Shown: positions 8,949 to 56,939 of the stretch, one piece after another
Position numbering within the stretch: the stretch's first letter is position 1
Layout of the letters: each line of letters starts with the position of its first letter
NCBI RefSeq assembly: GCF_963921235.1
Contig: NC_086108.1
Span: forward strand, 59,398,001-59,462,000
From: Mobula hypostoma
Lineage: Eukaryota
Direction of reading: 5' to 3'
Length of the DNA: 64,000 nt
The notes under the pieces: generated by a model
The model's input: only the letters and a program-made list of their open reading frames with translations
Databases searched by the model: none
What the model was told of the DNA's origin: nothing
Made by a program: the position numbers and the translations under genes

Positions 8949-9670
8949 GCATCTTGAGGAGTTTTGCAGAAGTTGATGATTAGTAGAGTCTATTTTAAAA
9001 TTGGTACAAGACTCTTAGATTTTGTTTAATTGACATGATTAACACAGACAAACGCAGAGGTGAAGGAGGATTACATCTTTTTTTTATATGTGCAGAAATA
9101 AAGAGCAAACATAACATAAAACACTGGCTCAGTATAACTGACTGTATTTTGAGCCAAAAAATAAACAACACAACTAAATAAAAGCACAGGCTCTATGGTT
9201 TGCACCATCCCTTCATTCCATTATTAGCACAAAAACATATTTTTTACAAAAGGAACATCAGAACCACCACATAAACACTGCAACAACATATTTTTTTTAT
9301 TTGCTAAAGATATTTCTACCTTGTTAAGGTATGTTCAAATTGCAGTTTTGGAACAATATGGCTTGCAGGCAGTTATCTGTTAACAACATCAAAGACAACA
9401 GCTTGAACTCGAGCTGGAAGGAATGAACAATTGAAAGACAAATACACTTTGACCCACTGAACAGAAATTCTTTGACAGCTTGGGATGGTTATAGTGCAGT
9501 GGCAGTAATGCAATAGTTCAGGACTGGAGATGCCGGCAATAAAGACGATGAAGATCAAGAAAGACAGAGGACAAGAAAGGAAGCATATGGGGAGGCAGGT
9601 TTGGTGGAAAATGTATCTAGTAGTAAAAAATGCATAACAAGAATAGTCTGCAAACACTTTCACAAAAAAA

Positions 9671-11151
9671 CAACACACATCAAAGTTGCTGGTGAACGCA
9701 GCAGGCCAGGCAGCATCTGTAGGAAGAGGTACAGTCGACGTTTTGGGCCGAGACCCTTCGTCAGGACTAACTGAAAGAAGAGTTAGTAAGAGATTCAAAA
9801 GTGGGAGGAAGAGGGGTAGATCCAAAATGATAGGAGAAGACAGGAGGGGGAGGGATGGAGCCAAGAGCTGGACAGGTGATTGGCAAAAGGGATATGAGAG
9901 GATCATGGGACATGAGGCCCAGGGAGAAGGAAAAGGGGGAGGGGGGAAAAAACCCAGAGGATGGGCAAGGAGTATAGTCAGAGGGACAGAGGGAGAAAAA
10001 GGAGAGAGAGAGAAAGAATGTGTGTATATAAATAAATAACGGATGGGGTACGAGGGGGTGGTGGGGCATTAGCAGAAGTTAGAGAAGTCAATGTTCATGC
10101 CATCAGGTTGGAGGCTACCCAGACGAAATATAAGGTGTTGTTCCTCGAACCTGAGTGCGGCTTCATCTTTACCTAGAGGAGGCCGTGGATAGACATATCA
10201 GAATGGGAATGGGATGTGGAATTAAAATGTGTGGCCACTGGGAGATCTTGCTTTCTCTGCCGGACAGAGCGTAGGTGTTCAGCAAAACAATCTCCCAGTC
10301 TGCGTCGGGTCTCGCCAATATATAGAAGGCCACATTGGGAGCACCGGACGCAGTATATCACTCCAGCCGACTCACAGGTGAAGTGTCGCCTCACCTGGAA
10401 GGACTGTCTGGGGCCCTGAATGGCGGTAAGGGAGGAAGTGTAAGGGCATGCGTAGCACTTGTTCTGCTTACAAGGATAAGTGCCAGGAGGGAGATCAGTG
10501 GGGAGGGATAGGGTGACGAATAGACAAGGGAGTCGCTTAGGGAGCGATCCCTGCGGAAAGCAGAGAGGGGGGAGAGGGAAAGATGTGCTTAGTGGTGGGA
10601 ACACGTTGGAGGTGGCGGAAGTTACGGAGAATAATATGTTGGACCCGGAGGCTGGTGGGGGTGGTAGGTGAGAACCAGGGGAACCCTATTCCTAGTGGGG
10701 TGACGGGAGGATGGAGTGAGAGCAGATGTGCGTGAAATGGGGGAGATGCATTTGAGTGCAGAGTTGATGGTAGAGGAAGGGAAGCCCCTTTCTTTAAAAA
10801 AGGTGCACATCTCCTTGTCCTGGAATGAAAAGCCTCATCCTGAGATCAGATGCAGCGGAGACAGAGGAATTGCGAGAAGAGGATGGCATTTTTTCAAGAG
10901 ACAGGGTGAGAAGAGGAATAGTCCAGGTAGCTGTGAGAGTCAGTAGGCTTATAGTAGACATCAGTAGATAAGCTGTCTTGAGAGATAGAGACAGAAAGAT
11001 CTAGAAAGGGGAGGGAGGTGTCGGAAATGGAACAATGCAGTCGTCAATGTAGCGAAGGAAGAGTGGGGGACAGATACCAGAATAGGTTTGGAACATAGGT
11101 CGTTCCACAAAGCCAACAAAAAGACAGGCATAGCTAGGACCCATACGGGTG
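9671..11151 (-). mobile_element. Neptune-type Penelope-like element, 5'-truncated (left arm of inverted dimer)
   Basis: RT motif LFLRYIDDCI, Cys linker GTYPCKQNKCYAC and GIY-YIG motif GVIYCVRCSQCGLLYIGET. There is an internal deletion of about 80 nt near 11030. It is the reverse complement of the 3' part of 11353-13638. Confidence 0.92.
9733..9768 (-). ncRNA. Penelope minimal hammerhead ribozyme motif, core mutated (GAAA->AAAA)
   Basis: AGTC-CTGACGA-A-GGG TCTCGG CCC-AAAA-C-GTC-GACT. Confidence 0.7.
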
Positions 11152-11298
11152 AACAAAAAGACAGGCATTGCTAGGACCCATATGGGTGAACAAAAAGACA
11201 GGCAGAGCTAGGACCCATACGCGTGAACAAAAAGACTGGCATAGCTAGGACCCATATGGGTGAACAAAAAGACTGGCATAGCTAGGAGCCATATGGGT
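11115..11298. repeat. 5 x 37-bp tandem repeat of Penelope RT sequence
   Basis: Unit AACAAAAAGACAGGCATAGCTAGGACCCATAYGGGTG starts at 11115, 11152, 11189, 11226 and 11263. Confidence 0.95.
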
Positions 11299-11352
11299 TT
11301 CTCCTTTGGCTCCTCCCACTTCCTCCAAACTAAAGGTGTAGCTATGGGCACC

Positions 11353-13638
11353 TTGTTCCCATTCCAACCTTACTCCTTCCAAACGGTCTGCTCTCCACTC
11401 CCTCCACACTAATCCTAACCTTACTATTAAACCTGCCGATAAGGGGGGTGATGTTGTAGTCTGGCGTACTGGTCTCTACCTTGCCGAGGCACAGTGACAA
11501 CTTGCGGATACCTCGTCTTATTTACCCCTCGAGCGTGACCCCACTAAGGAGCACCAGGCCATTGTCTCCAACACCATCACCGACTTTATTCGCTCAGGGG
11601 ATACCAACCTTATAGTTCCCACACCTCGCACTTCCCGTTTCTACCTCCTACCCAAGATCCACAAACCTGCCTGTCCTGGCAGACCTATTGTCTCACCTTG
11701 CTCCTGCCCCACCAAACTCATTTCTGCATACCTGGACACGGTTTTATCTCCCCTTTTTCAATCCCTTCCTACCTATGTTCATGACACTTCTCACGCTCTT
11801 AAACTTTTCGATGATTTTAAGTTCCCTGGCCCCCACCACTTTATTTTCACCATGGATGTCCAGTCCCTATATACCTCCATCCCCCATCAGGAAGGTCTCA
11901 AAGCTCTCCACTTCTTTTTGGATTCCAGAACTAATCAGTTCCCCTCTACCACCACTCTGCTCCGTCTCGCGGAATTAGTCCTTACTCTTAATAATTTCTC
12001 CTTTGGCTCCTCTCACTTCCTCCAAACTAAAGGTGTAGCTATGGGCACCCATATGGGTCCTAGCTATGCCTGTCTTTTTGTTGGCTTTGTAGAACGATCT
12101 ATGTTCCAAACCTATTCTGGTATCTGTCCCCCACTTTTCATTGACGACTGCATTGGCGCTGCTTCCTGCATACATGCTGAGCTCGTTGACTTCATTAACT
12201 TTGCCTCCAACTTTCACCCTGCCCTCAAGTTTACCTGGTCCATTTCAGACACCTCCCTCCCCTTTCTAGATCTTTCTGTCTCTATCTCTGGAGACAGCTT
12301 ATCCATTGATGTCTACTATAAGCCTACTGACTCTCACAGCTATCTGGACTATTCCTCTTCTCACTCTGTCTCTTGCAAAAATGCCATCCTCTTCTCGCAA
12401 TTCCTCCGTCTCCGCCGCATCTGCTCTCAGGATGAGGCTTTTCATTCCAGGACGAGGGAGATGTCCTCCTTTTTTAAGGAAAGGGGCTTCCCTTCCTCCA
12501 CCATCAACTCTGCCCTCAAACGCATCTCCCCCATTTCATGCACATCTGCTCTCATTCCATCCTCCTGTCACCCCACTAGGAATAGGGTTCCCCTGGTTCT
12601 CACCTACCACCCCACCAGCCTCCGAGTCCAACATATTATTCTCCATAACTTCTGCCACCTCCAACGTGATCCCACCACTAAGCACATCTTTCCCTCCCCT
12701 CCTCTCTGCTTTCCACAGAGATCACTCCCAATGCGACTCCCTTGTCCATTCATCCCCCCCATCCCTCCCCACTGATCTCCCTCCCGGCACTTATGCTTGT
12801 AAGCGGAACAAGTGCTACACATGCCCTTACACTTCCTCCCTTACCACCATTCAGGGCCACAGACAGTCATTCCAGGTGAGGCGACACTTCACCTGTGAGT
12901 CGGCTGGGGTGATATACTGCGTCCAGTGCTCCTGATGTGGCTTTCTATATATTGGTGAGACCCGGCGCAGACTGGGAGATCGTTTTGCTGAACACCTACG
13001 CTCTGTCCGCCAGAGAAAGCAGGATCTCCCAGTGGCCACACATTTTAATTCCACATCCCATTCCCATTCTGATATGTCAATCCATGGCCTCCTCTACTGT
13101 AAAGATGAAGCCACACTCATGTTGGAGGAACAACACCTTTTATTCCGTCTGGGTAGCCTCCAACCTGATGGCATGAACATTGACTTCTCTAACTTACGCT
13201 AATGCCCCACCTCCCCCTTGTACCCCATCCGTTATTTATTTATATACACATATTCTTTCTCTCTCTCTCTTTCTTCTCCCTCTGTCCCTCTGACTATACT
13301 CCTTGCCCATCCTCTGGGCTTTCCCCCCCTCCCCCTTTTCCTTCTCCCTGGGCCTCCTGTCCCATGATCCTCTCATATCCCTTTTGCCAATCACCTGTCC
13401 AGCTCTTGGCTCCATCCCTCCCCCTCCTGTCTTCTCCTATCATTTCGGATCTCCCCCTCCCCCTCCTACTTTCAAATCTCTTACTCACTCTTCCTTCAGT
13501 TAGTCCTGATGAAGGGTCTCGGCCTGAAAGGTCGACTGTACCTCTTCCTAGAGATGCTGCCTGGCCTGCTGCGTTCACCAACAACTTTGATGTGTGTTGC
13601 TTGAATTTCCAGCATCTGCAGAATTCTTCGTGTTTACA
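11353..13638 (+). mobile_element. Neptune-type Penelope-like element, 5'-truncated (right arm); disrupted RT-GIY-YIG ORF
   Basis: Motifs KPADKGG, DVQSLYTSIPH, GVAMGTHMGPSYA, FLDL, YYKPTD, CKRNKCYTC and GVIYCVQCS. A 9-nt deletion turns LFLRYIDD into LFIDD, and there is a stop at 12933-12935. Confidence 0.93.
13502..13537 (+). ncRNA. Penelope minimal hammerhead ribozyme motif, stem III mutated
   Basis: AGTC-CTGATGA-AGGGTCTCGGCCT-GAAA-G-GTC-GACT. Confidence 0.7.
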
Positions 13639-13842
13639 TTCACAAAAAAACAGTTTTCTCTGCACTTCTACTGACCCATGACAGAAAGTTGAAGTTCCTA
13701 TCAGTAGGATGCTAAATGATACTTTTTCACCAAATGACAACCATCATTATAGAAGACGCTACATTTCTGTAGTTAGCATTTTAGAAACAGTCACAGAGTT
13801 TTTCCACCCATTCTGATTTCAATTATTAAGATCTTTCATATA

Positions 13843-15510: not shown

Positions 15511-16791
15511 AAACGACAATAACCTTCTACGAACATACATGTAGTGCTCAGGAAATTTCATAATTCAAGTTAATGGCCCTATTAAATCCAACCAATGCAC
15601 CACTTTTCTCCTCTTACTGTTGTTCTCAGTGAAAGCTATAGCTTGGAAAATGTGAAAATATAGATAATTGAAGCAAAATATTTTACCATAAATATTCACT
15701 CTGGGGATTGAAAACCTATAAATCATATATATGCAGATCATATAAAACCAATAATTCAAAGAATTACATAAAATGAAACAAGCTACATCAGAGTTTGCAT
15801 ATTCAAGAGATGAATTCTTCCAACAGCTTGAGGGGCTGTGGATGAAAGCACCATGTGTCTATAACTGAGTGTTTTGATTAGAAAAGTTTTAGGCTCTGTG
15901 TGAAGAGTAACCATGTTTTTCAGAGTGCTGTAATTTAGTATTTGCAGACTGGGTAAAGAATGAAAATGTGATCTGTGAGACTAATTCAGATCACTGTCCA
16001 ATGACCTCGGCTAGAATGTATTAGTGTAGACATTCATTGAAGACGGAACTGAACTCATCTGCTATATTGTTCATGATTAAACAGCCCACTAACTGTAGAT
16101 ATCCAGACAAATGAAAAATGGCATGGGTGGGTGATGTAGCAGAGTGATGTTAGTACGGTATCTATGAGAATGTAACAAAGCAAATGAGAAGAGAAAAGTA
16201 ACAAATCTCAAAATAACTTCCATCGGGCACATTTTTGTATTACTGTGCAAAAATATAATTCCACTATCTTGGAAATATTAAGTCTTTGATTAATTGTTAT
16301 CACATAGGTGTTAATAACCCTCTGATATCCAATTATCAAATCCAGTCTCAGCAATAATGAGAATTAAACTTTTTTGGTTTACAGAAAAAAATATTTTCAT
16401 ATGACATCCATGTTGTAGCAGGGGTTTCAAGTTGCTAGGTGCAGGGATAAAGCCCATGTTTTCTGATTCAGGGACATTACTCCCATGATCAAACATCAGA
16501 ATTTATCAACCTTTGCGCAAACTGTGAAATGATCCTAAATCAGCTGAACAGGCTACTTTAAAATGTATCTTAGCTGGATGCAACCCATGTGTAGCATATT
16601 CTGCTCCTTTACCATTTTCCAATTTTAAAATTCAACTGGAAGGGCAAGATGTGCTTATCCTTTATTGACAAATGTAATCTGAATAGCAGAATGATGTTTC
16701 CATACCCATCAATATTTCTTTTATTTTTGCTAATGCAAAAGTAAAATTCATCATACCTGAAAAAGGATCCAGTACTTCCCCATTGTATATG

Positions 16792-16977
16792 ATGAATAAA
16801 CTCTTCTTGAGCTTCTAGCCAGATGCAGGAATCAATTGTAACCAACACTTCGATGACAAACTCTGCCATCTTCATCAGAGATATAGATCCCTGATGAAGA
16901 TAGCAGAGTTTGTTATCGAAATATCGATTATAATTGATACCTGTAACCGGCTGGAAGCCCGGTAAGAGTTAATTCAT
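16792..16977. mobile_element. 186-bp palindromic element made of two inverted hammerhead-like motifs (probably Penelope-derived)
   Basis: Arms at 16792-16882 and 16887-16977 with a 4-nt spacer. The right arm reads CTGATGA-A-GATAGCAG AGT TTGTTATC-GAAA-TATC. Confidence 0.75.
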
Positions 16978-18589
16978 TAATCATATCTGTGTAGATCAAA
17001 TATGAGTGATAGTATATACTTAAGTGGTGGAAGGCATTTTCTAAAACCCAAAATATACGGTGTGAGTCAAACTGGGCAGAAGCTTAAAGAAAAGCAAAAT
17101 AAGCATAGCTTTCTCTGAAAGGATTCCTACTTAGCCAGTTTTAATCACAGCTGAGGAAGAGGATTACAGGGAGTAATTTTCTTATAACATCACAGGAGAA
17201 GGATAAAATCTAAGAGTGAACAGACTTCTTTTGATGTAACTCAAAAAATATTGTTAAAACGAAACTGTTCCTACCTAATGAAACCCTGATCAAGCCGAAC
17301 ATAGGCACAATGGTTTCAATAAACTGAATTGAACAATCTTAACATACACTTCAGATTAAAATTTTGATTTCTGCAATATATATGCCCATTTATTCTCTCT
17401 AAATAGATGTACCTAACCAATTGACAATGTAGGATCATTTAATCTAGGTTGAAAAACAGGGATTCAAGATATCTACTGTACTACTGTCGATTTCCTCAAG
17501 TTGCAGGAACAATAAACATCATTCTTATTGTTATTTAATTGTAACTCTTCATTCCTTGTCAGAAATGCAATGCCTAAGATTTCCAAGACAAGGTCCTACA
17601 AGCAGCAATAAAAATAACAATGAATATTGGCCAGGGCACTAAATGCACTTCCCTGCTTTATTTTTCACGTTGCTTTATCCACCCAAGATGGAAGATAAGA
17701 CTTAATGTGACATCTTAACTAAATATGATGCCCACACACTAATGTATCGATGGGCTAATGTAGATAATAACACTCATGAAGGAAAACACATATGGGCCCA
17801 CAGATAAAAGATTTATTCTATCTGCATTGCCCTGTATACAAAATCTATGAGACACCGGAGATTTTTTTAAAAATTTGTTCTTAATATGCCCAGCAGAATG
17901 ATGTTCCAATGAATATCCCTAATGAAAAACCTGAAGAAAGATTGGGACACACATCCATGCAAACATACAGAGCATCAAAGAGCAGGAGGGAAACAGATTC
18001 AACAGCTGCTATTAGAAATAAAATTTCTTCTTCATATCAATGAAATATATCTGTCATGGTTTTTCAGTTCTTCAAAACCATACTGTCCTACCCAATCCAA
18101 ATGATCACACACCAGAACCTTATTACAACATTCTTAATGGAAGATTCCAAGGACATTGAACCATTTGATGTTTCAGATTATTAGTACAAGATTATTTGTA
18201 ATATGAAGGAATACTTGGCATTGACCTGGAAATGTATCTGTGCAGTGATAATTTTTCAGGCTCTGAATAGATCACCAAGCTCACAACATGGGGGAAAAAG
18301 CACACCATTTGCCCTTTGGAATAATGCTGACAGGACACATAGCAAACATTTTAGTTAATTCAAATTTTGGTAATCTATGTCTTGTACATGTTATGCTTTT
18401 CCAATGCACTACTTATCATTTGCAACTCACACAACATATTACGGGCTCCCTGGTGGGAAGACTTCCATACTTACCCTAATGTGAATATGAAGTTCCATTC
18501 TTCCAGGGTGATCTGGCTTCCTCCCACGTCCTAGAGGTGTCCTGATAGGTTCGTTGGCTTCAGTAAATTAACCCTCTGGTCTGCCAGCA

Positions 18590-23228: not shown

Positions 23229-25518
23229 ATAGAAACATAGAAACATAGAAAATAGGTGCAGGAGTAGGCCATTCGGCCCTTCGAGCCTGCACCGCCATTT
23301 ATTATGATCATGGCTGATCATCCAACTCAGAACCCAGCCTTCCCTCCATACCCCTTGACCCCTGTAGCCACAAGGGCCATATCTAACTTCCTTTTAAACA
23401 TAGCTAATGAACTGGCCTCAACAGTTTGCTGTGGCAGAGAATTCCACAGATTCACCACTCTCTGTGTGAAGAAGTTTTTCCTAACCTCGGTCCTAAAAGG
23501 CTTCCCCTCTATCATCAAACTGTGACCCCTCGTTCTAGACCTCCCCAACATCGGGAACAATCTTCCCGCATCAAGCCTGTCCAATCCCTTTAGGATCTTA
23601 TACGTTTCAATCAGATCCCCCCTCAATCTTCTAAATTCCAACGAGTACAAGCCCAGTTCATCCAGTCTTTCTTCATATGAAAGACCTGCCATCCCAGGAA
23701 TCAATCTGGTGAATCTTCTTTGTACTCCCTCTATGGCAAAGATGTCTTTCCTCAGATTAGGGGACCAAAACTGCACACAATACTCCAGGTGTGGTCTCAC
23801 CAAGGCCTTGTACAACTGCAGTAGTACCTCCCTGCTCCTGTACTCGAATCCTCTCGCTATAAATGCCAGCATACTGTTCGCCTTTTTCACCGCCTGCTGT
23901 ACCTGCATGCCCACTTTCAATGACTGGTGTATAATGACACCCAGGTCTCGTTGCACCTCCCCTTTTCCTAATCGGCCACCATTCAGATAATAATCTGTTT
24001 TCCTATTTTTGCCACCAAAGTGGATAACTTCACATTTATCCACATTAAATTGCATCTGCCATGAGTTTGCCCACTCACCCAACCTATCCAAGTCACCCTG
24101 CATCCTCTTAGCATCCTCCTCACTGCTAACACTGCCACCCAGCTTCGTGTCATCCGCAAACTTGGAGATGCTGCATTTAATTCCCTCATCCAAGTCATTA
24201 ATATATATTGTAAACAACTGGGGTCCCAGCACTGAGCCTTGCGGTACCCCACTAGTCACCGCCTGCCATTCTGAAAAGGTCCCGTTTATTCCCACTCTTT
24301 GCTTCCTGTCTGCTAACCAATTCTCCACCCACACCAATACCTTACCCCCAATACCGTGTGCTTTAAGTTTGCACACTAATCTCCTATGTGGGACCTTGTC
24401 AAAAGCCTTTTGAAAATCCAAATATACCACATCCACTGGTTCTCCCCTATCCACTCTACTAGTTACATCCTCAAAAAATTCTATGAGATTCGTCAGACAT
24501 GATTTTCCTTTCACAAATCCATGCTGACTTTGTCCGATCATTTCACCGCTTTCCAAATGTGCTGTTATCACATCCTTGATAACTGACTCCAGCAGTTTCC
24601 CCACCACCGACGTTAGGCTAACCGGCCTATAATTCCCCGGTTTCTCTCTCCCTCCTTTTTTAAAAAGTGGGGTTACATTAGCCACCCTCCAATCCTCAGG
24701 AACTAGTCCAGAATCTAACGAGTTTTGAAAAATTATCACTAATGCATCCACTATTTCTTGGGCCACTTCCTTAAGCACTCTGGGATGCAGACCATCTGGC
24801 CCTGGGGATTTATCTGCCTTCAATCCCTTCAATTTACCTAACACCACTTCCCTACTAACATGTATTTTGCTCAGTTCCTCCATCTCACTGGACCCTCTGT
24901 CCCTTACTATTTCTGGAAGATTATTTATGTCCTCCTTAGTGAAGACAGAACCAAAGTAATTATTCAATTGGTCTGCCATGTCCTTGCTCCCCATAATCAA
25001 TTCACCTGTTTCTGTTTGCAGGGGACCTACATTTGTCTTTATCAGTCTTTTCCTTTTTACATATCTATAAAAGCTTTTACAGTCCGTTTTTATGTTCTCT
25101 GCCAGTTTTCTCTCATAATCTTTTTTCCCCTTCCTAATTAAGCCCTTTGTCCTCCTCTGCTGAACTCTGAATTTCTCCCAGTCCTCAGGTGAGCCACTTT
25201 CTCTGGCTAATTTGTATGCTACTTCTTTGGAATTGATACTATCCCTAATTTCTCTTGTCAGCCACGGGTGCACTACAAATCACTACTTGATTTATTCTTT
25301 TGCCAAACTGGGATGAACAATTGTTGTAGTTCATCCATGCAACCTTTAAATGCTTGCCATTGCATATCCACCGTCAATCCTTGAAGTGTCATTTGCCAGT
25401 CTATCTTAGCTAATTCATGTCTCATACCTTCAAAGTTACCCCTCTTTAAGTTCAGAACCTTTGTTTCTGAATTAACTACGTCACTCTCCATGTTAATGAA
25501 GAATTCCACCATATTATG
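23229..25518 (-). mobile_element. Young 5'-truncated CR1 LINE
   Basis: (TTTCTATG)n tail at 23229-23251, an uninterrupted RT frame and retained CpGs. Confidence 0.95.
23327..25273 (-). CDS. CR1 ORF2 RT + C-terminal domain, 648-aa open frame (no ATG start, endonuclease missing)
   Basis: Motifs KSPGPDG, NYRPVSLTS, YLDFQKAFDKV, GVPQGSVLGP, KFADD and RPHLEYC. The frame begins at GTG after an indel at 25277-25287. Confidence 0.85.
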   Translation of the reverse strand: MHPWLTREIRDSINSKEVAYKLARESGSPEDWEKFRVQQRRTKGLIRKGKKDYERKLAENIKTDCKSFYRYVKRKRLIKTNVGPLQTETGELIMGSKDMADQLNNYFGSVFTKEDINNLPEIVRDRGSSEMEELSKIHVSREVVLGKLKGLKADKSPGPDGLHPRVLKEVAQEIVDALVIIFQNSLDSGLVPEDWRVANVTPLFKKGGREKPGNYRPVSLTSVVGKLLESVIKDVITAHLESGEMIGQSQHGFVKGKSCLTNLIEFFEDVTSRVDRGEPVDVVYLDFQKAFDKVPHRRLVCKLKAHGIGGKVLVWVENWLADRKQRVGINGTFSEWQAVTSGVPQGSVLGPQLFTIYINDLDEGIKCSISKFADDTKLGGSVSSEEDAKRMQGDLDRLGEWANSWQMQFNVDKCEVIHFGGKNRKTDYYLNGGRLGKGEVQRDLGVIIHQSLKVGMQVQQAVKKANSMLAFIARGFEYRSREVLLQLYKALVRPHLEYCVQFWSPNLRKDIFAIEGVQRRFTRLIPGMAGLSYEERLDELGLYSLEFRRLRGDLIETYKILKGLDRLDAGRLFPMLGRSRTRGHSLMIEGKPFRTEVRKNFFTQRVVNLWNSLPQQTVEASSLAMFKRKLDMALVATGVKGYGGKAGF

Positions 25519-26116: not shown

Positions 26117-26662
26117 CACTCAGTGGCCACTTCATTAGATACACCTGTACACCTGCTCTTTAATACAAATATCAGCCAGTCACGTGGCAGCAACTCAATG
26201 CATAAAGACATGGTCAAGAGTTTCAGTTGTTGTTCAGACCAAATATCAGAATGGGAAGAAATGTGATCTAAGTGACTTTGACCATGAAATGATTGTAGGT
26301 GCCAGATAGGGTGGTGTGAGTACCTCAGAAACTTCTGATCTCCTGGTATGTTCATTGCACAACAGTCTCTAGAATTTACAGAGAATGGTGTGAAAAACTG
26401 AGGAACATCTAGTGAGCAGCAGTTCTGTGGGTGAAAATGCCTTGTTAATGAGAGAGGTCAGAGAAGAATAGCTAGACTGGTTCAAGATGACAGTAACTCA
26501 GATAACCATGCATTACAACTGTGGTGTGCAGAAGAGTACCTTTGAATGCACAGCATGTCAAACCTTGTAGTGGACGGTCTACTGAAGCAGAGGACCACAA
26601 ACATACACTCAGTGACCACATTATTAGGTACAGGAGGTACCTAATAAAGCAGTCACTGAGTG
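26117..26662. mobile_element. Tc1-like non-autonomous element
   Basis: TIR CACTCAGTGGCCACTTCATTAG ... CTAATAAAGCAGTCACTGAGTG followed by TA. A third TIR copy lies at about 26606. Confidence 0.8.
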
Positions 26663-28150
26663 TAAAGAGCAGCCTCTGATAATTTTTTCAGTTAATAATT
26701 TCTGATTACCCTCTATTGTCTTATTTTTGGCACCAAAATACTGCTAATTGTATAAATACTCAAGAAACATGAGAACACAGTTTAGTTCCTTCTTTATTTT
26801 TATAGAGACTTTAAATCATATACCCAGTAATAATTAAGTATTCTCCTCAGAAATGATGGGATAAATATAAAGTTATAAATATTGTCCAGATAATTTGAAG
26901 GACAAAGTCTTTGACTGATTTAGTAATACTTAATTTCAACACAGTTAGCAAGTAAGCAATTATTGATTTCATTGTGGGGCAAATTTAAAATGCAGAGATT
27001 AGGAATTCGATCTACCTTGTTATATCAATCTGACTGTTTTACAATGAAGTTTTAGTTATAATGTAACTGTGCCAACAAAAATAAAGAAATTAATGAAGGT
27101 TCGATTGTTGATCACTATCCAATGACTGTATTGTAAATTCTGCATGTGCATTTCAGGTAAGGACATTTCTCTGGATGAAGTGACTACTGCACTCTCTGAT
27201 CAGACAAAAAATGGCAAACTAACAGAACCTGGAGGCAGCCGCAGAACTGTCAACATTATTAAAAGTTTCATAATTCTAAAATGGATTGCCCTTCTGCCTT
27301 TATTTGTCCATGATTAACATTGACATTAATTAAAAAATATAATCCGAGCATTCATATTAAGCCAGCAAAGTCAATAAGCATCTAAAGTCCTTGGTCTGAA
27401 ATTAGTTAAAATGTGACTTGCTCTGAAACCATAAAATGCTGCTCTCCTTCCATCCACATTCCAGAATGACAGAATAATTATGACTATTAGAATAGCTTAT
27501 TTTATTATTTTGCTACTACTGTTTTGCAAATTTTTTATCGAAATAAGAAATCTTATATAATACTGAAAACATATCCGAATTGCATTGCATTGAATTATAT
27601 TATTTTGTTAGACAATTGGTATTCACCACACACCTATTCTTTCAGATCCAATTGACATAGGCTGCTATTTGAAGCTATCACATCCATGCCATTTTACTGT
27701 AGACCAATCCAGTTAGTCCCATTTACCCATTTTCCCCATTGCCCTGCAAATTATTTTCCCTCAAATATCTATCCAATTCTCTCTATGAATTACAAATTGA
27801 TTCTGTTTCCACCATATTATTAGTAATGAACTGCGAATTATAATCACTTGCTTAATAAAATAGTTTTCCTTAAATCTACCACAGCTACCCTTCCACATTT
27901 TCCCTGCGCATCCAATCTAATCATGTATACCTTTCATTCTCCAGTCAGCCATTCAAGCTGGAGTTGAATGGCACAGAACCATATTTAAATTAGAAAGGAA
28001 ATTCAAACCTGTAACTTTGTGATTTTGACTGCCCATAGTTTCCAGTAGTTGTCTTGGAACAAAGCACCTCAGCTGATGCTGCACATAACGAAATCCTGTA
28101 GTTTATACTATTTATGTTGCTTGCAGACTGTAATTTTCATTTCTCTAAAT

Positions 28151-29599
28151 CAGCCTTTTTCAACTTTTTTTCCCTGGAGGAACCCTTGAAATAATTTTCA
28201 GGTCCCAGGGAACCCCTGAATAAAATTATTATATCTCCAGCTCACGGTTTGTTAGTGTGATTATTAAGTTGCTGATACAATAATCCAAAAATAATTGTCA
28301 ATGCCGTTTTGAGTAGATAATGAATTTTTAACTTACCTTTCTTGAAATTAATCTCTTTCTTTCCCTTTTATAAATTTTAAAAACTCATAAGGCAAACATA
28401 TTACATTTCTGTTAAATAACTGGCTTAAGCCAAAATTGGATTTAATTGTTCTAAAGGTAGGCACAGTAGACTTATCTTAAATAAAGTTTATAAATTGATT
28501 TTAATTAATGCTATTTACAACATGAAGATTTATTGACAATGGTGTATAGTAAAATTACTAAACAACATAAGCCAAAGGAATATGAATAAAAATATAGCCT
28601 AATACACAATTTTATACAAGACTTTGGAAAAGCATTTTCTTACTAAGTGCCATGATCAGACTCAAATACAAGCCTAGCATGTGAAACTTGTGCTTAGTCT
28701 TTGCTGCACAAATACTCAATCCTAGGTCAAACTTGAGATAAGCATACATGGATTTCACCTTCAACTGAAATGAGACAATTTCTATTCTTGCTCCTGATCT
28801 TTGTTAAACAAGAAAAATCTTGCTCATATTTGTAAGAAGTTGAAAATTGCAGCAAGGTGTTCATTGTTTTCCTATGAATGGCAGAATACTCTTCTTTCAT
28901 AGAAATCCAGAACTTGTCAAGAGGCAGGTCAGTAAATCACATCTTGAGTGCATGATCAGACTGCAGCTCATAAAGTTTCAGGCTGAGCAGAAGATTAAGA
29001 GAAATGGTCCCTCACCCAGTCATACACTTGTGTTGAACGGGAAGAAAAATTTTGTTCAATTTTTTGTTCTGCAGTTCTTCCAGGTGGTTTTCGTATAAGA
29101 TTTGAGACTGAGCAGCTGAGTCACATAAAAATTCTTTCTTTAGAATGAAAATTTCCCTCCAATTTTTTACTGCATCAGCAGAGTTTATTCACTCCTATAA
29201 ATCAGTCAGCGATGCATAAGGGGAAGCTGGGGGAGGTAATTCAGGATGGAGAGACTGACATCACAGCCCAAGTTAGGCCAGTCCATTCAATGCTCGTAAA
29301 ACGCACTTCATGCTCCTCAGCATCCTATCGTCCTCCCCTCTGTGCAATACAGCGCTCAGCAATTATCAATGGCCTCCCCTATCTCACATCAAAAAATGAG
29401 AATAGACTCAACCAAATAAATATGGTCCTACTGCGCATTGCCATATTGGGCTGAAAGACCTCTAATAAGTTTGCTAACAGATCTGCTCGGTCACTGCCCA
29501 CCACTGCGAGCACTAGCATTACGTGCTGTGCGAAGTTCAAAAAGCAAAGTTTTTTTTTTAAATGATGATCTCTCATGGAACCCCGACTGAGAAAACCTG
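28151..29599 (-). mobile_element. hAT (Charlie/Buster-type) internally deleted transposon with perfect 8-bp TSD
   Basis: Ends are CAGCCTTTTTCAAC.. and ..GACTGAGAAAACCTG. TSD CTCTAAAT lies at 28143-28150 and 29600-29607. The minus strand carries a hATC-like remnant LLQFSTSYKYEQDFSCLTKIRSKNRN at ~28680-28860. Confidence 0.9.
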
Positions 29600-30408
29600 C
29601 TCTAAATATTCTTTCTACGTCAAAATAAATATATGCAATATGGGAGAAAAAAGGAAAGTTGATGTGATCAGTTAGAGGTTGACTCAGCTTCGGCCACTGT
29701 GTTGAACTGTGTACAACACTCAATCTGACTATTTGCCGACTGTGTTCTGTAAACAGCATATGGTGGAATTTAATTTCAAATGGAATATGTTTTAAATATA
29801 TTTTTATAATGCATTTGTGTCATGTACAACTAAACAAAATGTATGTTTGTTTTACCTCGTCCACTCTGGTGATAACTGCCCAGTTAGAAGGGTAAAAGTT
29901 AGAAGGGTAAGATACTTCTATAATTAAGTGTTGCATTATCATTCTGACCAACAGACTGAAATAATAGCTTCACTCTCACACTAGGTTCACAAGATGCTTA
30001 ATAATCATCAATTCCAGGTGTATTATGAAAGCTAATATATTTTCATGGAGGTTGAAGAAATAAAAGTTTTTAAAAATCAGTTACTTTGTGGGCATCAAGT
30101 GAGATTGAGTTTGTCAGTTCCTGCAGGAAGATTTCTTGGTGACCTCCTTGTGCACTGTCCTACACAAATCGTTAACATTTATCTAGCACATCCATCCTTG
30201 AGTACTGTATCTCCCAGAACAAATGGAAAGCAAACACATCCTGCTTGATTCAATGAGAAATAGAAACTAATAAACAGAGGTTTTCATAGACTGTGCTGGG
30301 AAAGTCAGCACATTTGAGCTCTGCTGCTTCATAGCAACATCATGAAGATTACAGAATTAGCTGTTTTCACAAAACAAGTTGTTAACTGGTGTCTTTGAGT
30401 TTGCCAGG

Positions 30409-30455
<47 letters not shown>

Positions 30456-30483
30456 GACACATATATATATGTATATATATATA
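30409..30483. repeat. Compound (GT)n(TA)n(CA)n(TA)n microsatellite
   Basis: Seen directly in the sequence. Confidence 0.95.
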
Positions 30484-31249
30484 GGCAGCTGATAGTCAGT
30501 TTGTCATCAATTTATGGTTGTCTTGTGGAAGACTGCAACGTATTTAGCTGCAAGTAGTTGGTGGTTCTCTGCAGTAGCTATTGGCCACAGACTTCTTCCT
30601 TGGGACTACATTAATATCCATTAATTCGCAGCACTGGGCTTGTGCATTCAATAAACAGGAGAGGATTCAAGAGCAGTCACAATATTTCCTCCCTGTCAGC
30701 AAATTGAGAAGATCACCAATCATAGACTAGCAATGCGGTATAGATAAGACATTGGGAAAATATGCTGGATTTTAAGGATAATCATAGTAAAAAATGAAAC
30801 AATAGCAATGTTATATTTGCTTTTATTGATTTCTTCAGGTCTTAGCATTTTCTGCTGTTTACATCTAATACTACATAACTTTCACAGCTGCAACCATACT
30901 CCTGCTTCCAGCTCTCAGTACAATATCCTGTCTGAGTTCAGAGCTGTACATGGAGTGGAACACACAGATAATCTGCCTAAGTAAGCTACAAAAACTGGGG
31001 CAGCTCTTTCTTTAAATCCTACCACCAACCCACCAAAATAAAATTAAACTATCTCATCATCTCAGTTCCCACATGGCTATGTCCAGTTCCTGGAAATGAA
31101 TATCTAAAGAGAAACAGAGAGAATAGCAAATACTACAGAACCAAAAATTCAGCAGTGGAAAAGAAAGAGGGTGAATACAAAAAGAATACTTTTAAACTCT
31201 AAGTAATATTTTAAACGAAAGATCCAAACAGGCTTCATATTCTTAATCA

Positions 31250-31695
31250 CTTTTTTACAGCTGCGCAGACCAATCATTGCTCTAAGCAGGAAATTTTTAC
31301 ATGGCCTGAAAACTGTGTAGCACTTTAAATGTTTTTTTTATAACATGCTTATTACCACATTGGCATTCAGCGGGCCGGTGGGTTATTAGCAATGAGCTAC
31401 CAACTTCCATTCTGTGTTTATTCTTACAATTTGTAACTTTAAACACCGATAATTTAAATATGTCGAAGCTCTAAAATATTTCAAAGTAAAGGTTGTGGTA
31501 TGTTTATTATTTAGAAAATTTATGGATTATATTCATTAACATAGTTAATTACAGGGTATTTCACAATTATAGTAGCATAATTTCAAAATTATATTAACAT
31601 TACATAAAATAAAATTTCAGCTGCGTGACAACAAAGACTATGTGCGCGGGAGCATTTCAGTTACTGTGCACCCATGCAGCTTAGAGGGAACAGTG
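31250..31695. mobile_element. hAT-type MITE remnant (one TIR)
   Basis: Ends in GCAGCTTAGAGGGAACAGTG, a typical hAT terminus. I did not find the left TIR. Confidence 0.5.
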
Positions 31696-32079
31696 ATCAT
31701 GATCCTCAGCTAAACTTCCTTGGAGAACAATAGTATTAACAATTAACTGCAAATGAAGAAAAAGGTATTAAATAGCAGCATTTTTTCATGCTACTTAAAT
31801 TACTTATTATACCATACAAGTTTAAATATGGTGCATCTGGAGAGTGTTTTTTACATATTGTCACCTAAAAATGCAAGTTTCATGCTGGCTCACATAAACT
31901 ACTATTGTTTTAACAAAATCATAGTTTTTCATCAGCACATTTGAATTACTAGTTCAACTTTTAATCCAATATTTCTTTCAACACAAATATTCCCAACTAA
32001 AATCTTAACAACATCACCCACTTCCTTCTCAACTTCTGCAATCTATTGCTGAAGCTCTCATCAATGTCTTTGTTATCTC

Positions 32080-32305
32080 TGGAATCAACCTGGTGAATCT
32101 TCTCTGCACCACCTCCAAAACCAGTATATCCTTCCTCAAGTAAGGAGACCAGAACTACATGCAGTACTCCAGGTGTGGCCTCACCAGTACCCCGTACAGT
32201 TGCAGCATAAGCTCCCTGTTCTTAAATTCAGTCTCTCTAGCAATGAAGGCCAACACTTCATTTTCCTTCTTGATAGCCTGCAAGCCAACCTTTTGTGATT
32301 TATGA
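32080..32305 (-). mobile_element. CR1 fragment
   Basis: Reverse complement of the LVRPHLEYCMxFWSPYL coding region. Confidence 0.8.
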
Positions 32306-32593
32306 CATTAAACTCTGTCCGGAGCCATTTACAGCAAGTAGTATCTAAATACAAGTAACAAGATTTTTTTGTTCAAGTTTAGGTTTATAGTCATCTGACA
32401 GAACTAATACAAGCAAATGAAACAATGTTCCCCTGAAACATGGTGCACCCACACAACAGCAAATAAACCAAAACGTTATAAAATAAATAAATTAATTAAT
32501 AAAAAATAATTCAAAATGTACGTAGTAATTTGCAACGCAGGTAAACAGTAAACATTCATCTTGGAGGTTGTGAAACAATGTATTGAATCATTC

Positions 32594-33026
32594 CAACCTG
32601 ATGGCATGAACATTGACTTCTCTAACTTCCGCTAGGCCCCACCTCCCCCTCGTACCCCATCTGTTACTCCTTTTTATGCACACATTCTTTCTCTCACTCT
32701 CCTTTTTCTCCCTCTGTCCCTCTGAATATACCTCTTGCCCATCCTCTGGGTCACCCCCCCCGTCTTTCTTCCCGGACCTCCTGTCCCATGATCCTCTCGT
32801 ATCCCCTTCTGCCTATCACCTGTCCAGCTCTCGGCTCCATCCCTCCCCCTCCTGTCTTCTCCTATCATTTTGCATCTCCCCCTCCCCCTCCAGCTTTCAA
32901 ATCCCTTACTCACTCTTCCTTCAGTTAGTCCTGACGAAGGGTCTCGGCCTGAAACGTCGACTGCGCCTCTTCCTACAGATGCTGCCTGGCCTGCTGCGTT
33001 CACCAGCAACTTTGATGTGTGTTGTT
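32594..33026 (+). mobile_element. Penelope 3' fragment with 13-bp TSD
   Basis: Matches 13160-13598. TSD TATTGAATCATTC at 32581-32593 and 33027-33039. Confidence 0.9.
32927..32962 (+). ncRNA. Penelope minimal type-I hammerhead ribozyme, core intact
   Basis: Stem I AGTC/GACT, core CTGACGA, stem II AGG/CCT, GAAA, palindromic stem III (ACGT), and a GTC cleavage triplet ending at 32958. Confidence 0.75.
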
Positions 33027-33616
33027 TATTGAATCATTCGGTTGTTTGCATAAATTGCAATTAATATATAAGTATGGTTATTTGGCAAAGCTATTCTCTG
33101 GCATATTTTATTGTGTGCTGAATTTAATTGGCAACAGAGGGAAATCTACAAATGGTGGTATTCTTGAGAGCCTGCTGCCATTGTTCTTCTTTGTGCTAAA
33201 GTTTCAGGTTTATGAGGTGCAACCAGAGTAGTCAAGATGAGTATAAAGATCAACATCTTCAATACTAAGGATCATGAAAAAACGTCACAGATTTTATGGT
33301 AACACCACACTGAAACCGCTATAGTTGCCTGTAACATGACGTTCTGTATTGATGTTCTGTAAGTTCTTGCAGCTGTTGGCATTGCAAACTCTAAAACCAG
33401 CACTTAATTGACACTCTACAATGTCAGCAACACACTTCCAACTCCAGATGAATGGCTGCTGCAATGTTACTAGGAGGTGGGAAAGTAATCCCACAGGGTC
33501 TGAACATGCTGGGCAAGCTGAAGATCTGAATCTGCAGGAGAAAGGTTCTTTGCCCAAGGAGACCATGGAGCCCTTTCAGCACTACAGCCAAACACTTTTG
33601 CTAGGGAATAGACATG

Positions 33617-34643
33617 ACAAGTCAAGTCACTTTTTATTGTCATTGCAACCATAACTGCTGGTACAGAACATAGTAAAAATGAGACGATGTTTTCCAGGAC
33701 CATGGTGCTACATGAAATGATACAAAAACTACACAGAACTATGTAAGAAAAACACAAAAACTATACTAGACTACAAACCTATCCAGGACTGCATAAAGTG
33801 CACAAAACAGTGCAGGCATTACAATAAATAATAATAAATAATAAACAAGACAGTAGGCACAGTAGAGAGCAGTAGGTTGGTGTCAGTCCAGGCTCTGGGT
33901 ATTGAGGAGTCTGATGGCTTGGGGGAAGAAACTGTTACATAGTCTGGTCATGAGAGCCCGAATGCTTCGGTGCCTTTTGCCAGATGGCAGGAGGGAGAAG
34001 AGTTTGTATGAAGGGTGCGTGGGGTCCTTCATAACACTGTTTGCTTTGTGGATGCAGCGCGTGGTGTAAATGTCTGTGATGGCGGGAAGGGAGACCCCGA
34101 TGATCTTCTCAGCAGACCTCACTATCTGCTGCAGGGTCTTGCAATCCCAGATGGTACAATTTCCAAACCAGGCCATGATGCAGCTGCTCAGGATGCTCTC
34201 AATACAGCCTCTGTAGAATGTGGTGAGGATGGGGGGTGGGAGATGGACTTTCCTCAGCCTTCGCAGAAAGTAGAGATGCTGCTGGGCTTTCTTTGCTATG
34301 GAGCTGGTGTTGAGGGACCAGGTGAGATTCTCCGCCAGGTGAGCACCAAGAAATTTGGTGCTCTTAACGATCTCTACGGAGGAGTCGTCGATGTTCAGTG
34401 GAGAGTGGTCGCTCTGTATCCTCCTGAAGTCAACAACCATCACTTTTGTTTTGTTTACATTCAGAAACAGGTTGTTGGCTCTGCGCCAGTCCATTAGCCG
34501 CTGCACCTCCTCTCTGTATGCTGACTCATCATTCTTGCTGATGAGACTCACCATGGTCGTGTTATCGGCAAACTTGATGATGTGGTTCTAGCTGTGAGTT
34601 GCAGCACAGTCGTGGGTCAGCAGAGTGAACAGCAGTGGACTGA
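33617..34643 (-). mobile_element. Rex1/Babar LINE 3' part, young (223-aa open frame at 33883-34554)
   Basis: Motifs [37 protein letters not shown] and SFFPQAIRLLN, with a (TGACT)n tail. Confidence 0.9.
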
Positions 34644-35144
34644 AAGGAAAAGTCTGCAATCTCTGAATGCCTGCACTTTGAAGAAATTGCAAAATAAAGG
34701 CAATTGCCTATGGTCACTCAGTATTCTCCAGAGACCCACAGAGAAAGTAGATGAAATCGCCTCTTGTTTAATTAGCTTATGGAAGACTGAGATCTGGTTG
34801 AGATCAGCTTCAGCAGCCCACAGTGATCCTAAGATGAGAAGTCTGAGAGTGTTAGTTAGTGGTCTTGATCCCCACAGGTAAAACATTTTCAGCAAGTGCA
34901 AGGCCATATTCAAGGTCACAGCTCTCCATAAGAACAAAACAAAAAGTAAATGACAGTTTTGGCTCCTTATATAGCACACTTGCAGGAGAAATGAAGTTAC
35001 TAAAAGCTGGTTACTTTCTGGATAAATAAGGTAAATGTTACACAATTGTTGAATTTTTGGGAGTATTTTACATTGCAAAAATGCATCAGAGCCATAGAAA
35101 TGGCTGAACTGCATATCCTGATAGGTACTAAGAAAAGCAGAAAT

Positions 35145-35280
35145 TGTCCTGACGAAGGTTCTTGGCCCACAATGTCAACTGTTTATTCATTCCCATAGAT
35201 GCTACCTGACCTGCTAAGTTACTCCAGCATCTTGTGAGTGCTGTTCTGGATTTCCAGCATCTGCAGAATCTCTTTTATGT
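35145..35280 (+). mobile_element. Penelope 3' tail with decayed hammerhead
   Basis: GTCCTGACGAAGGTTCTTGGCCCACAATGTC..GATGCTACCTGACCTGCT..CCAGCATCTGCAGAATC. Confidence 0.75.
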
Positions 35281-37429
35281 TTATGTTTCATATTTTGTTT
35301 GAAAACTGGATGAACAGAATTCTAGACCTCTTTCTTTAATTCTGTCCCCCTTCTTTCATCATGTCACTGTTACCTGCACTTCAATCGGTAATATTCTTGG
35401 CTCAGGATTTCCCTCCATAGCTTGTCCATTCATGTTCCTCACAACCTTAAAGAATGTACCAAAGCCCACCTTTTTGACCACGTTTTCATTGATCCTTGAT
35501 ACCTGCTTTATCATTTCATCATCCACTTTTCTCCCTACGCTTGTGATGCACCTGAGAATTTTCTATGAAAATGCAGCATAAATGGGGGGGGGGGGGGAGT
35601 TGATGGGAATGTGGGGAGAATAAAATGGGATTAGTGTTGGATTATCGTAATGCAAAATGCAAAAGGCTCCTTTCCATGTTCTAAGACTGAATATTTCCCC
35701 TGTTCTCAAAACAAGCTAACTCAAATTTCGAAACACATATCCACATATATTGAATGCTAACTATAGAATGCAACTGCAAGAACAAAATCACTATTAAATT
35801 TCGTGTATTGTTTGTTAGTATGTAGTTAGTGGGCTCCAGCAATATTATTGCATAAAGCCATTCAGTGTAAAATTACGTTTGCACCATAAAGATCTGACCA
35901 AGAGAAACATATAATAATAATAACGCGTTTTAAACGAGAATCCTGAGAGAAAGAAAACAACACCACTACAGAATGCAGTCAAAATTTGGAATGACAGAAA
36001 AGACTGTGTTTCAAGTAAAATTAAGAAATGGCTAAACAACAGCTACTGATGCTCAATAAATTCTCAATAACTGTGCACATTAGAGTGAGTGAAATCTCTC
36101 CTGCGTTTTCACTTAGTTACATAGCAATACTTTGTTTCCCCGTTCATTTGAGGTGCGACAATCTCGAAGTGGAAAGACATCAGTGCCACCTCTCTGATTG
36201 GCCAAAAGGAGGTGCACTACTCCAGCACCGAACTGGTCCCACCAATTATTCTTCCCCGAGGATTATATTCTTGTATGTTCTATCTCATACTCAAACAAAA
36301 GTTGATAAAATCCAATCACTGAACATCAGAAAATTCAAGTAACTGAGATCTTCACTCGGTTCTTGAAATATTTATTTCTGCTGCTGATAATTACACCTCC
36401 TAGACAATTAACATTTTTAACGTTGGGCTCATTATTTGATTATGAAATGAAGATTTACCTGAAAGTTTCATCATTTTAAAAACGGTTAGATTACAGATTT
36501 TTACTCTGCTAATCAATTAGACATCTGTAAAGTAGTTACAGCAATGAGTTTAGAGATGTATAAAAATACATTTCGCCCAATTTCACGCATTGAATAGAAA
36601 ATTTCTCATTCCTTGTCCGACATGGTACCAACATATGGTTTGATTCTACCGCATGCATGCAAAGCTACGCTACTTCTAAAGTTATCAACAACGCCTTACA
36701 TATTCTGAAGAAAATAAAAGATTTTCTTCTCTCTGCTATGGAAGTAAAATAATGGACAGTATATGCGTCAGGATAATTGCACTTTAATAACATAACATCT
36801 GTTTTCATTTATTTTAGGCTGTAAGTAGGGTGGTAAATAAAAAGGTGTGGCATATTGAAGTCTGGTAAATTTAAAAACAAACTCCTACAGGTTAACCATT
36901 AATACATCTATACTGTTGCAGTATTGCTGCAAATTAAACAATATACGATTCCAGTGACGGTATGTTTCATTCTGAGGATAGTGTCGGTATTTTTCATTTA
37001 ATTTTATCAATATAAAAACCCAGCAACTCATGAATGCCACGGGCACAAATAAATTGCGACGAATTCAATTCTTCCCAGTGAGAAACAGAAACGCAACGTC
37101 AGGCTGAGGTGTAGATTCGCTGCACAATGCAGTGCTTTGCTTGGCACAGAGCGTTCGCAGTGTACGGACACACACAGTTTTTGCACCCACTCCCAACTAT
37201 ACCCTCTGGGAACTATTAAAACGCACAGTTGTACAACAGGGAATATACCAGACTGGTCAACCATGAGCAACTTGAAACATTCGCCCAACAACCACATTGA
37301 CAGCACAGATGTTCATCATTACGTCTAAGAGAAAAAAATAAAGCGGAACAAGAATGTAAACAATAATGTTTTCCTCCCCCACCCTCCACGCCACAGGATG
37401 TCTGTCGCAGGTTGCTGTTGCACCCCTAC

Positions 37430-41789: not shown

Positions 41790-42243
41790 AGAGACTACAG
41801 AGTTGTGGGCACTGCTCAGAGACCATGGAAACCAACCTCTCCTCCTTGGTCTCTGTCCATGCAGTATGTCTTGTTGCGTCAGTAAAGCAACTAGCATAAT
41901 CAAAGACCCCACCTACCCTGAACATTCTCTTTCCTCCCCTCTCCCATCGGGTAGAAGATACAACAGCCTGAAATCACAGACCCACCTGGGTCAAGGACAG
42001 TTTCTACCCATTATTGAATTATTCCCTATTAAAAGATGGACTCTTAACCTCACAGTCTACCTCATAATGATTGCGCACTTATTGTCTACCTGCAGATTCT
42101 CTTTTGCTGTTACACTTTATTGTGCATTCTATTATTCTTTTGCCTTGTACTTCCTCAGTGCATTGTCTAGTGAATTGATCTGTATGAACAGAATGCAAGA
42201 CAATGGTACATGTGAAAATAATAAACCAATTCTAATTCCAATT
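41790..42243 (+). mobile_element. Rex1/Babar 3' fragment
   Basis: IIKDPTYPEHSLSSPLPSGRRY motif and AATAAACCAATT tail. Confidence 0.8.
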
Positions 42244-42245
42244 TA

Positions 42246-42561
42246 CGAGGGGTGATTGATAAGTTTGTGGCCTAAGGTAGAAGGAGATGAGTTATTAACT
42301 TCAAACTTCAAACTTCAGACTTTCTGCATAATCACTCTTGTTACATGCATGAAGCCACAAACTTATCAATCACCACCCCTGCTTTGGACCACTTTCTGGA
42401 GGTCCAAGACGCCAACTTCTACTAAGAAGTGATCTGTATGCACCACGAGCGTTAGACTAAGCATGCAAATGAAGGACGAGACTTGTTGAAAAATAAATAT
42501 GCTAGGTTTTCTAAAATTGACCCCTTCTACCTTAAGCCACAAACTTATCAACTACCCCTCA
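42246..42561. mobile_element. Mariner-type MITE with TA TSD
   Basis: TA|CGAGGGGTGATTGATAAGTTTGTGGC ... GCCACAAACTTATCAACTACCCCTCA|TA. Confidence 0.85.
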
Positions 42562-43399
42562 TAAAATACATTGTATAAGATTGGATATAGTTAAAAGGCA
42601 TTTGTTCGATGTATTTCACAAAGCACTTTGCCAAATTTGGGAAAGATCTTGTGCAATTATCCTCCTGTGGAACCCATAACAATCACTGCTACAATGGTAT
42701 TAGAAACAACTGTCCTAGTACTGAAGAAAAAGAAGATAATAGTATGAAAGTCCATGTATCTCCTAATATTGGCAGTTAGTGAATGTTATTTTCAAATTTA
42801 TAAAAAACTGGCTGAGGAACAGCCCATCACCACAAGTCACCACAAAAGCAATAATACCTCAGTTTAAACTTGCTATGTCTCATCCAATACTGTATATCTT
42901 AGTGTTAACAGGAAACTACAATAGAAGGCTAGTTTTAAGCTAGATATATGCCTCCAATTTACCCAATTTATCTACTTGGCCACCAAAGTTATTTTGGTAT
43001 TTTCTTGGAGATCATGACCCTTCATGAGGCATTCTGAGGGATAAGGTATATTTATAATTGTAAAGGCAGGGCTTGAGTAGGGGTAATCAGCATAGCTTTG
43101 TGTATGGAAATCTTGTCTTACAATTTGACTGAGTTTCTTTTTTGATGAAGAATATGGATTTAATTAAGGTATTTGATACTTTATCTGCATAGTAGGCCTC
43201 TCTGGAAGGTTAGATTGCATAGCATTCACAGAGAGCTAGAAAACTGTAGATAAAATTCACAGGATGGTGGGAAACAAAAGGTGATGGTGGAGGGACATTC
43301 CCCAGAATAAATGTGTGTTACTATTGGTATATTCCAGGGATTGTTGCTGGGCCTATTATTATGTGTTATCTATATTAACCATTTGGATGAGAATCCAAA

Positions 43400-56335: not shown

Positions 56336-56939
56336 AACTTCAGAGATCTGTGCCAGCTATTACCAGCCTGCTGCTGCTTGATATTCTCTGTGTATATCCA
56401 GAGATTTGAGTTGTGAATAGGCTGCTTATCTGTATAAATTGTCCTCTTGATGGATAGCAAAGAATTAATTTTCCCTACCATTTCTAGAATCAGCTCTACA
56501 GATCAATGAACTGCGGAAATAACAAAACTTCTGTGTATCCATAGTCATTTCCTATTTCCTCAATTCACATAAGTGACTCCTGGCTCTGCCCATTCTCATC
56601 ACTGAAATCAATTTATTCATGAGAATGCTATCAAAATAAATTTTGAGATTTGAATCTGGTGCTGTCTAGTCCTACATCCAATTGGAGAAACCAAATTCAA
56701 GAACTGCTTGATATAGCTCAGTATAGTTCAGTCATCTCTGTTGCCCTCCTCTGAACTCCTCTCTGGGAATATACTTCTTGAAGTAGAGTATAAATGAGGC
56801 ACATAATTCTTCAGAAAAAAAGATAGGCAAAATTTAAAATATAATCCCATTATCTCAAACTTTCTGGATAGCTTACGCACTAAAGCCCAGATATTCTAAT
56901 GTAGCTGTATCTTACTATTTCTTTGATTGGAGTCAAAAC

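Follow-up and report, generated by a model that had tools for sequence, protein, structure and literature searches.

The fold-back hairpin at 16792–16977 of the window, by which we mean the whole 64,000-nt stretch of DNA analysed, is an ordinary decayed, doubly truncated insertion of a Penelope-like element (PLE), of a published pattern. It very probably records a single old insertion of an endonuclease-bearing PLE, likely of the Penelope/Poseidon type, of which both copies are 5'-truncated. Read on the minus strand, the locus consists of an inverted pLTR piece, a junction, a direct pLTR piece and a 34-nt tail, all lying between target-site duplications (TSDs) of 10–14 bp. A preliminary description had taken the hairpin for a 186-bp mobile unit with a ribozyme on either strand; it is partly confirmed, in that the hairpin is real and the sequence was rightly derived from the end of a PLE. 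The features of the locus are as follows.

16746–16759 (no strand): left copy of the TSD, 10–14 bp, matching 16976–16989 at 12 of 14 positions; its last 2 nt are common with the family end
16758–16791 (minus): PLE 3' tail, ~34 nt, at one end only, delimited by the family end in contigs of three DNA runs
16759–16869 (minus): putative first 37 codons of a PLE ORF, proposed from the open frame, the ATG opening stem II and the geometry
16792–16882 (minus): direct (sense) 5'-truncated pLTR copy that runs on into the tail, from inverted-repeat search, BLAST and contig depth
16840–16882 (minus): decayed minimal type-I hammerhead with CUGAUGA, extra A, 8-bp stem II, GAA, G15.1 and U17, from a descriptor search
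16883–16886 (no strand): head-to-head junction, a 4-nt spacer, from inverted-repeat search
16887–16929 (plus): minimal type-I hammerhead with intact core letters, palindromic AUAU and degraded stem I, from descriptor search and folding
16887–16977 (plus): inverted 5'-truncated pLTR copy, tail-less, with its 3' end at ATG +78, from inverted-repeat search, BLAST and contigs
16976–16989 (no strand): right copy of the TSD, matching the left copy at 12 of 14 positions; its first 2 nt are common with the arm

Architecture, age and family of the insertion

The inverted arms (16792–16882 and 16887–16977) are as first described, with 91 nt each, 80% complementarity and a 4-nt spacer, and a BLAST alignment of one arm against the other (E 4e-43) contains 18 differences, 14 of which are transitions. 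The boundaries of 186 bp, by contrast with this agreement, were drawn too narrowly: the insertion has ~34 nt more at the left (16758–16791) as well as the TSD, both of which had been missed. The TSD-flanked span is 16760–16975, and the insertion comes to ~216 bp in all. Because two bases per end are common with the element, the length of the TSD is given as a range of 10–14 bp, and in a scan of control positions a 12/14 match was reached by 5 of 2000 drawn at random from the window and by 2 of 2000 in the local flanks. Nor is the locus free of an open frame, as had been stated: on the minus strand, the left arm and tail can be read for 39 stop-free codons beginning at 16875, and stem II opens with an ATG.

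Of 24 public runs listed, 20 contain part of 16300–17500; we aligned contigs from four of them, three of which are DNA runs, to this stretch at 80% likeness. Run X9, presumed to be RNA, was left out as evidence of expression, because contigs show neither strand nor level. Contigs from other species run from the unique flank ~50 nt into the left end of the insertion and ~45 nt into its right end, with flank differences of 12 and 7 letters (~1–2%) in run X5 and of 43 and 39 letters (~7–9%) in run X13. Both insertion ends thus occupy the orthologous position in two further species, from which we take the insertion to be old; none of the listed pieces covers the stretch from end to end. An empty site did not appear among the contigs of the runs examined.

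The same alignments place the arms in a family of high copy number, as had been claimed, and exclude single-copy status. The three DNA runs, from three genomes, contribute 3259, 3457 and 2902 aligned contigs, whose summed depth over 16833–16873 is 35,733, 40,482 and 35,011 against ~7–14 in most flank bins, a pile-up that is not equal to copy number. In run X1, the summed depth over the left arm is 27,000–36,000, compared with 12–14 in most flank bins. Family sequence runs 34 nt beyond the left arm, on that side only, to 16758, and from there 79, 79 and 62 contigs pass into AT-rich sequence that is unrelated (agreement 0.38). The family also goes on past the fold point: in the three DNA runs, 115, 102 and 123 contigs extend behind 16882 and 114, 107 and 144 before 16887, and these upstream continuations enter one common sequence (agreement 0.64–0.67), which is known solely as 30-letter loose-end consensus strings.

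Only a small fraction of this depth crosses the junction itself: at 16885 the summed depth is 324, 186 and 217, or ~0.5–0.9% of arm depth. Among the 15 joints listed of 64, 11 connect the left arm with the right arm or the spacer end and do so at 11 different breakpoint pairs (in 7 of the 11, the intervening sequence between the pieces is indeterminate), while the other four joints (strand changes) are read as deletions within copies. In one contig the arms of this fold-back are separated by 38 nt, and another holds a head-to-tail repeat whose units are separated by the tail. There are also three listed pieces from other loci that span nearly the same junction at ~80–85% identity with 3–6 gaps, which indicates that a preferred junction point or a small subfamily exists, and in the three DNA runs 4, 2 and 3 contigs have a spacer that is shorter by 1 nt.

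The left extension, the upstream continuation, the low junction depth and the varied joints together argue that 186 bp is not the unit of the family, and the idea of a MITE-sized or retrozyme-like mobile unit of that length does not hold, since the family extends past both arm sides and its junctions vary among copies. MITEs carry inverted repeats at their very termini and have a uniform length among copies. Membership in this class was rejected on the 34-nt tail outside one arm and on lengths and junctions that vary among copies.

The hammerhead motifs

The identification of a PLE-type minimal hammerhead was correct, and its elements are present as claimed: CTGATGA at 16891 (plus) and 16878 (minus), the extra A, an 8-bp stem II with an AGT loop, GAAA-TATC in the right arm, GAAG-TGTT in the left arm, and a stem II pair that is A-T in one arm and G-C in the other. 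A descriptor requiring the core, a stem II of at least 7 bp and GAAA has its sole window match at 16891 and matches 1 of 200 shuffled windows; when GAAG is allowed, 16878 is added and 3 of 200 shuffles match. As the descriptor rarely matches shuffled windows, the motif is not a chance occurrence. Rfam gives 0 matches in the 64-kb window at the gathering level, and at E ≤ 10 around the fold-back it gives 18 matches, all sub-gathering and mostly to generic hairpin miRNA models, with no hammerhead family among them. This blank is uninformative because Rfam also misses a well-formed hammerhead motif at 13506, where it returns 2 unrelated matches.

Both motifs are decayed, so that the description of two ribozyme motifs is too generous. 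Core position 15.1 is a G in the left copy; to our knowledge, A15.1 of the hammerhead core is invariant. The right copy lacks the stem I pair 1.2–2.2, its stem I reading C-G, C/A, U/U, A-U. The palindromic ATAT of the right arm is most simply taken as a CpG-decayed ACGT, given that contig loose ends indicate GAAACGUC in the family (4 contigs, run X9) and that the CpG-decayed form of this site is found in 53 contigs of run X5. When the motif is folded alone, the first six pairs of stem II have predicted pairing probabilities of 0.92–0.98, whereas in the whole fold-back element the predicted probability is 0.0 on both strands. Because the arms pair with each other, in hairpins with predicted energies of -105 and -119 kcal/mol, stem II would be unformed in a transcript of either strand. 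The combination expected of an active hammerhead, an intact core with stem I that can fold in the transcript, is absent from the fold-back. The earlier proposal of a working ribozyme on either strand therefore fails on the lesions in both motifs and on their burial in the predicted read-through hairpin, and ribozyme function of this copy is, from these models, unlikely.

The motifs fit the minimal hammerheads of PLEs described in the available part of PMC4209133, which have a helix II of 7–8 bp, an extra base before helix II and palindromic positions 15.2–16.2, and which occur as pairs 100–700 bp apart on opposite strands. Here we likewise observe an 8-bp helix II, an extra base after A9, G10.1-C11.1, palindromic 15–16 positions and an opposite-strand motif pair; unlike in those pairs, the motif 5' ends are ~13 nt apart and both motifs have lesions. 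In the same excerpted source, single minimal PLE hammerheads are without cleavage and dimers cleave at a low level (PMC4209133), and cleavage by the hammerhead of PAc, the Poseidon of Anolis carolinensis, required the PAc protein (PMC11167929).

The compensatory-looking pair in stem II may stem from chance, from hairpin-templated DNA mutation, or from two template RNAs of two subfamilies. If the 18 differences are placed at random under a uniform model, such a pair with both changes in one arm arises with probability 0.087, and the pair together with an otherwise unchanged stem II with probability 0.007; without the same-arm condition, the corresponding values are 0.17 and 0.012. Core and stem II hold 4 differences in 33 nt between the arms versus 14 in the other 58 nt. 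We consider it rather unlikely that a hairpin mini-PLE was amplified as a small family or that the arms come from two RNAs of subfamilies covarying in stem II. Were the two-RNA origin true, it would leave in the genome the imprint of a dimeric PLE complex that primes each nick on its own template, and how the inverted repeats of PLEs arise, so far unexplained, could be tested from genome sequences.

Origin of the insertion

The locus resembles the insertion unit of EN+ PLEs. As given in the accessible text of PMC3846280, this unit comprises a direct pLTR and an adjacent inverted, shorter pLTR with an optional 31-bp tail, TSDs of 8–10 bp and mostly head-to-head junctions, and the portion of PMC8557442 available gives the same scheme with a 30–40-bp tail that is often at one end only. 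We find the inverted 5'-truncated and direct copies head to head, a one-sided tail of 34 nt (within the published 30–40 bp; PMC8557442), a TSD of 10–14 bp (12/14; the range applied to such units is about 8–14 bp, with the TSD optional), a minimal hammerhead in the pLTR, and varied truncation points and partial tandems among copies. Unlike such units, the fold-back is extremely truncated, at ~216 bp, and no RT or EN sequence is left.

A further likeness is to PAc, for which position +26 and an RT start at 111–118 are reported (PMC11167929). Counted from the stem II ATG (16869, minus), the fold-back has its cleavage position at +26, the end of the inverted arm at +78 and that of the tail at +110 to +112, so that the ATG opening stem II, the cleavage position and the 3' end all agree with PAc when compared by geometry, not sequence. 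The target is also AT-rich in both, with ATT at the start of the duplication; unlike PAc, the fold-back is decayed and its frame stops at 37 codons. It is this PAc-like geometry that places the parent probably in the Penelope/Poseidon clade. By itself, a 39-codon open frame is a weak sign of a PLE ORF.

Searches for an autonomous PLE sharing the fold-back end, which should encode a telomerase-like RT together with a GIY-YIG endonuclease, by DNA pattern in non-animal collections and in the window and by protein, did not find one. DNA-pattern searches gave 0 matches in viral contigs and 0 and 0 in metagenome contigs, and 0 for the family upstream motif in the 64-kb window. Protein searches with the putative N-terminus gave 1 and 8 candidates, none scoring, the decayed query of 39–41 residues being weak, and no Pfam family was found for the peptide. 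Two HMMER matches to it were rejected as summed-repeat artefacts in repetitive proteins without a Pfam match. Because these searches yielded neither an autonomous element nor a PLE protein, the link to an RT-GIY-YIG ORF is drawn from geometry, and the autonomous PLE parent is inferred. Literature searches on sharks and rays gave nothing specific to the family, which may already be catalogued in Repbase or Dfam.

The most likely route, by analogy, is double target-primed reverse transcription from two nicks. A PLE protein would nick both strands of the AT-rich target ~10–14 nt apart, and pLTR RNA would be reverse-transcribed from each nick. One copy would begin at the outer internal initiation site and so acquire the tail, and the other at the inner site, without the tail; both cDNA copies would stop after 90–125 nt and then be joined head to head. 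The inserted copy later decayed and has no likely ribozyme function. The arm ends at +78 and at the tail end fit a two-start-site account of the PLE tail. The pLTR carries the motif immediately before the start sites, which would make the two hammerheads passengers. Self-priming on an antisense template has been proposed for PLE inverted repeats (PMC3846280, in the part available), and the data here do not separate it from double target-primed reverse transcription. As a single locus the insertion matters little; its value is that of a clean specimen, and families of such mini-insertions could show whether the two arms derive from one RNA or two.

Could the fold-back, with or without its tail, instead be a small non-autonomous family, in which a PLE mobilised the transcript of one hairpin insertion in trans, leaving a minor subfamily with a shared junction? 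The pieces from three other loci spanning nearly the same junction and the shorter spacer recurring in three DNA runs would be accounted for, and pLTRs alone can act in cis for trans mobilisation (PMC3846280, in its accessible part). We nonetheless regard this as distinctly improbable: junction depth is below 1% of arm depth, 102–144 contigs per run and side enter the upstream family sequence, the other junctions vary, the arms have diverged by 20%, chiefly through transitions, and the recurrent junctions may stem from a short ATC/GAT repeat there. It is very unlikely, too, that the parent was a longer non-autonomous PLE derivative (a monomer some few hundred bases long, pLTR-only or retrozyme-like) rather than an ORF-bearing Poseidon. 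Like the fold-back, the non-LTR retrozymes are short, non-coding and PLE-related and carry type-I hammerheads, but in the available parts of PMC7229834 and bioRxiv 10.64898/2026.07.22.740005 they form head-to-tail tandems with canonical one-strand hammerheads and circular RNA, whereas the two motifs here face away from each other on opposite strands. Retrozyme membership was rejected on this orientation and on the lack of a tandem array at the locus, which also counts against a retrozyme-like parent. Such a parent would agree with the failure to find a protein relative and with the non-LTR retrozymes, which derive from pLTRs, also exist as solo monomers and were present in the one chondrichthyan genome sampled (1/1; bioRxiv 10.64898/2026.07.22.740005, as excerpted); yet the hammerhead is of the minimal PLE type and not the canonical type carried by retrozymes (PMC7229834, likewise), the geometry of ATG and tail is that of an autonomous Poseidon, and the short decayed query makes the protein blanks weak.

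That the insertion was retained because it serves the host, through ribozyme cleavage or as a long hairpin RNA, is barely credible. The presence of both its ends in three species, with flank differences of up to 7–9%, the lower divergence of core and stem II, and the pairing of stem II in both arms could be cited in its favour, but the left core is broken at 15.1 and the right stem I is broken, the predicted hairpin blocks both motifs, the arms are 20% diverged, and the published single minimal hammerheads (PMC4209133, in part) are without cleavage while that of PAc is protein-dependent (PMC11167929).

Other elements in the window

The window is animal DNA, apparently of a cartilaginous fish, and rich in retroelements, with RVT_1 matches at 11498–12772 and 23330–25279. 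A larger PLE at 9673–13638, earlier called Neptune, has an inverted copy (9668–11034) that is 93% identical to the direct copy (12236–13602), a 14/14 TSD at 9659–9672 and 13639–13652, a tail of ~36 nt at the right end only, and an RT (RVT_1) at 11498–12772. Because this element is built alike, a fold-back with a hammerhead on each strand appears to be a routine PLE leftover here. The fold-back is unrelated in sequence to the other PLE tails in the window, as previously noted: a BLAST match is absent, and a local alignment to 13480–13640 is equalled or bettered by 27 of 1000 shuffles.

The inversion junction of the larger PLE contains five 37-bp tandem repeats (11115–11298). At 32592–33027 there is a truncated copy of this element or a relative, which stops at the tail-less point and carries a short, intact hammerhead motif at 32931, and at 35146–35274 there is a diverged truncated copy of the element or a relative, tail included. 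Nested inverted-repeat clusters of another family, with arms of up to 98 nt and 87–94% identity, lie at 35–592 and 42237–42565 and probably represent a miniature element of DNA-transposon origin, and a palindrome at 26604–26664 has 28-nt arms, a 5-nt spacer and 89% complementarity. The minus strand at 23327–25279 holds an uninterrupted RT frame of 650 aa (RVT_1, E 5e-34), which we take to be CR1/L2-like, and several older fragments like it are found elsewhere in the window. Two short frames, at 56838–57173 (plus) and 61254–62282 (minus), presumably resemble LTR-retrotransposon integrase and RT/RNase H pieces.
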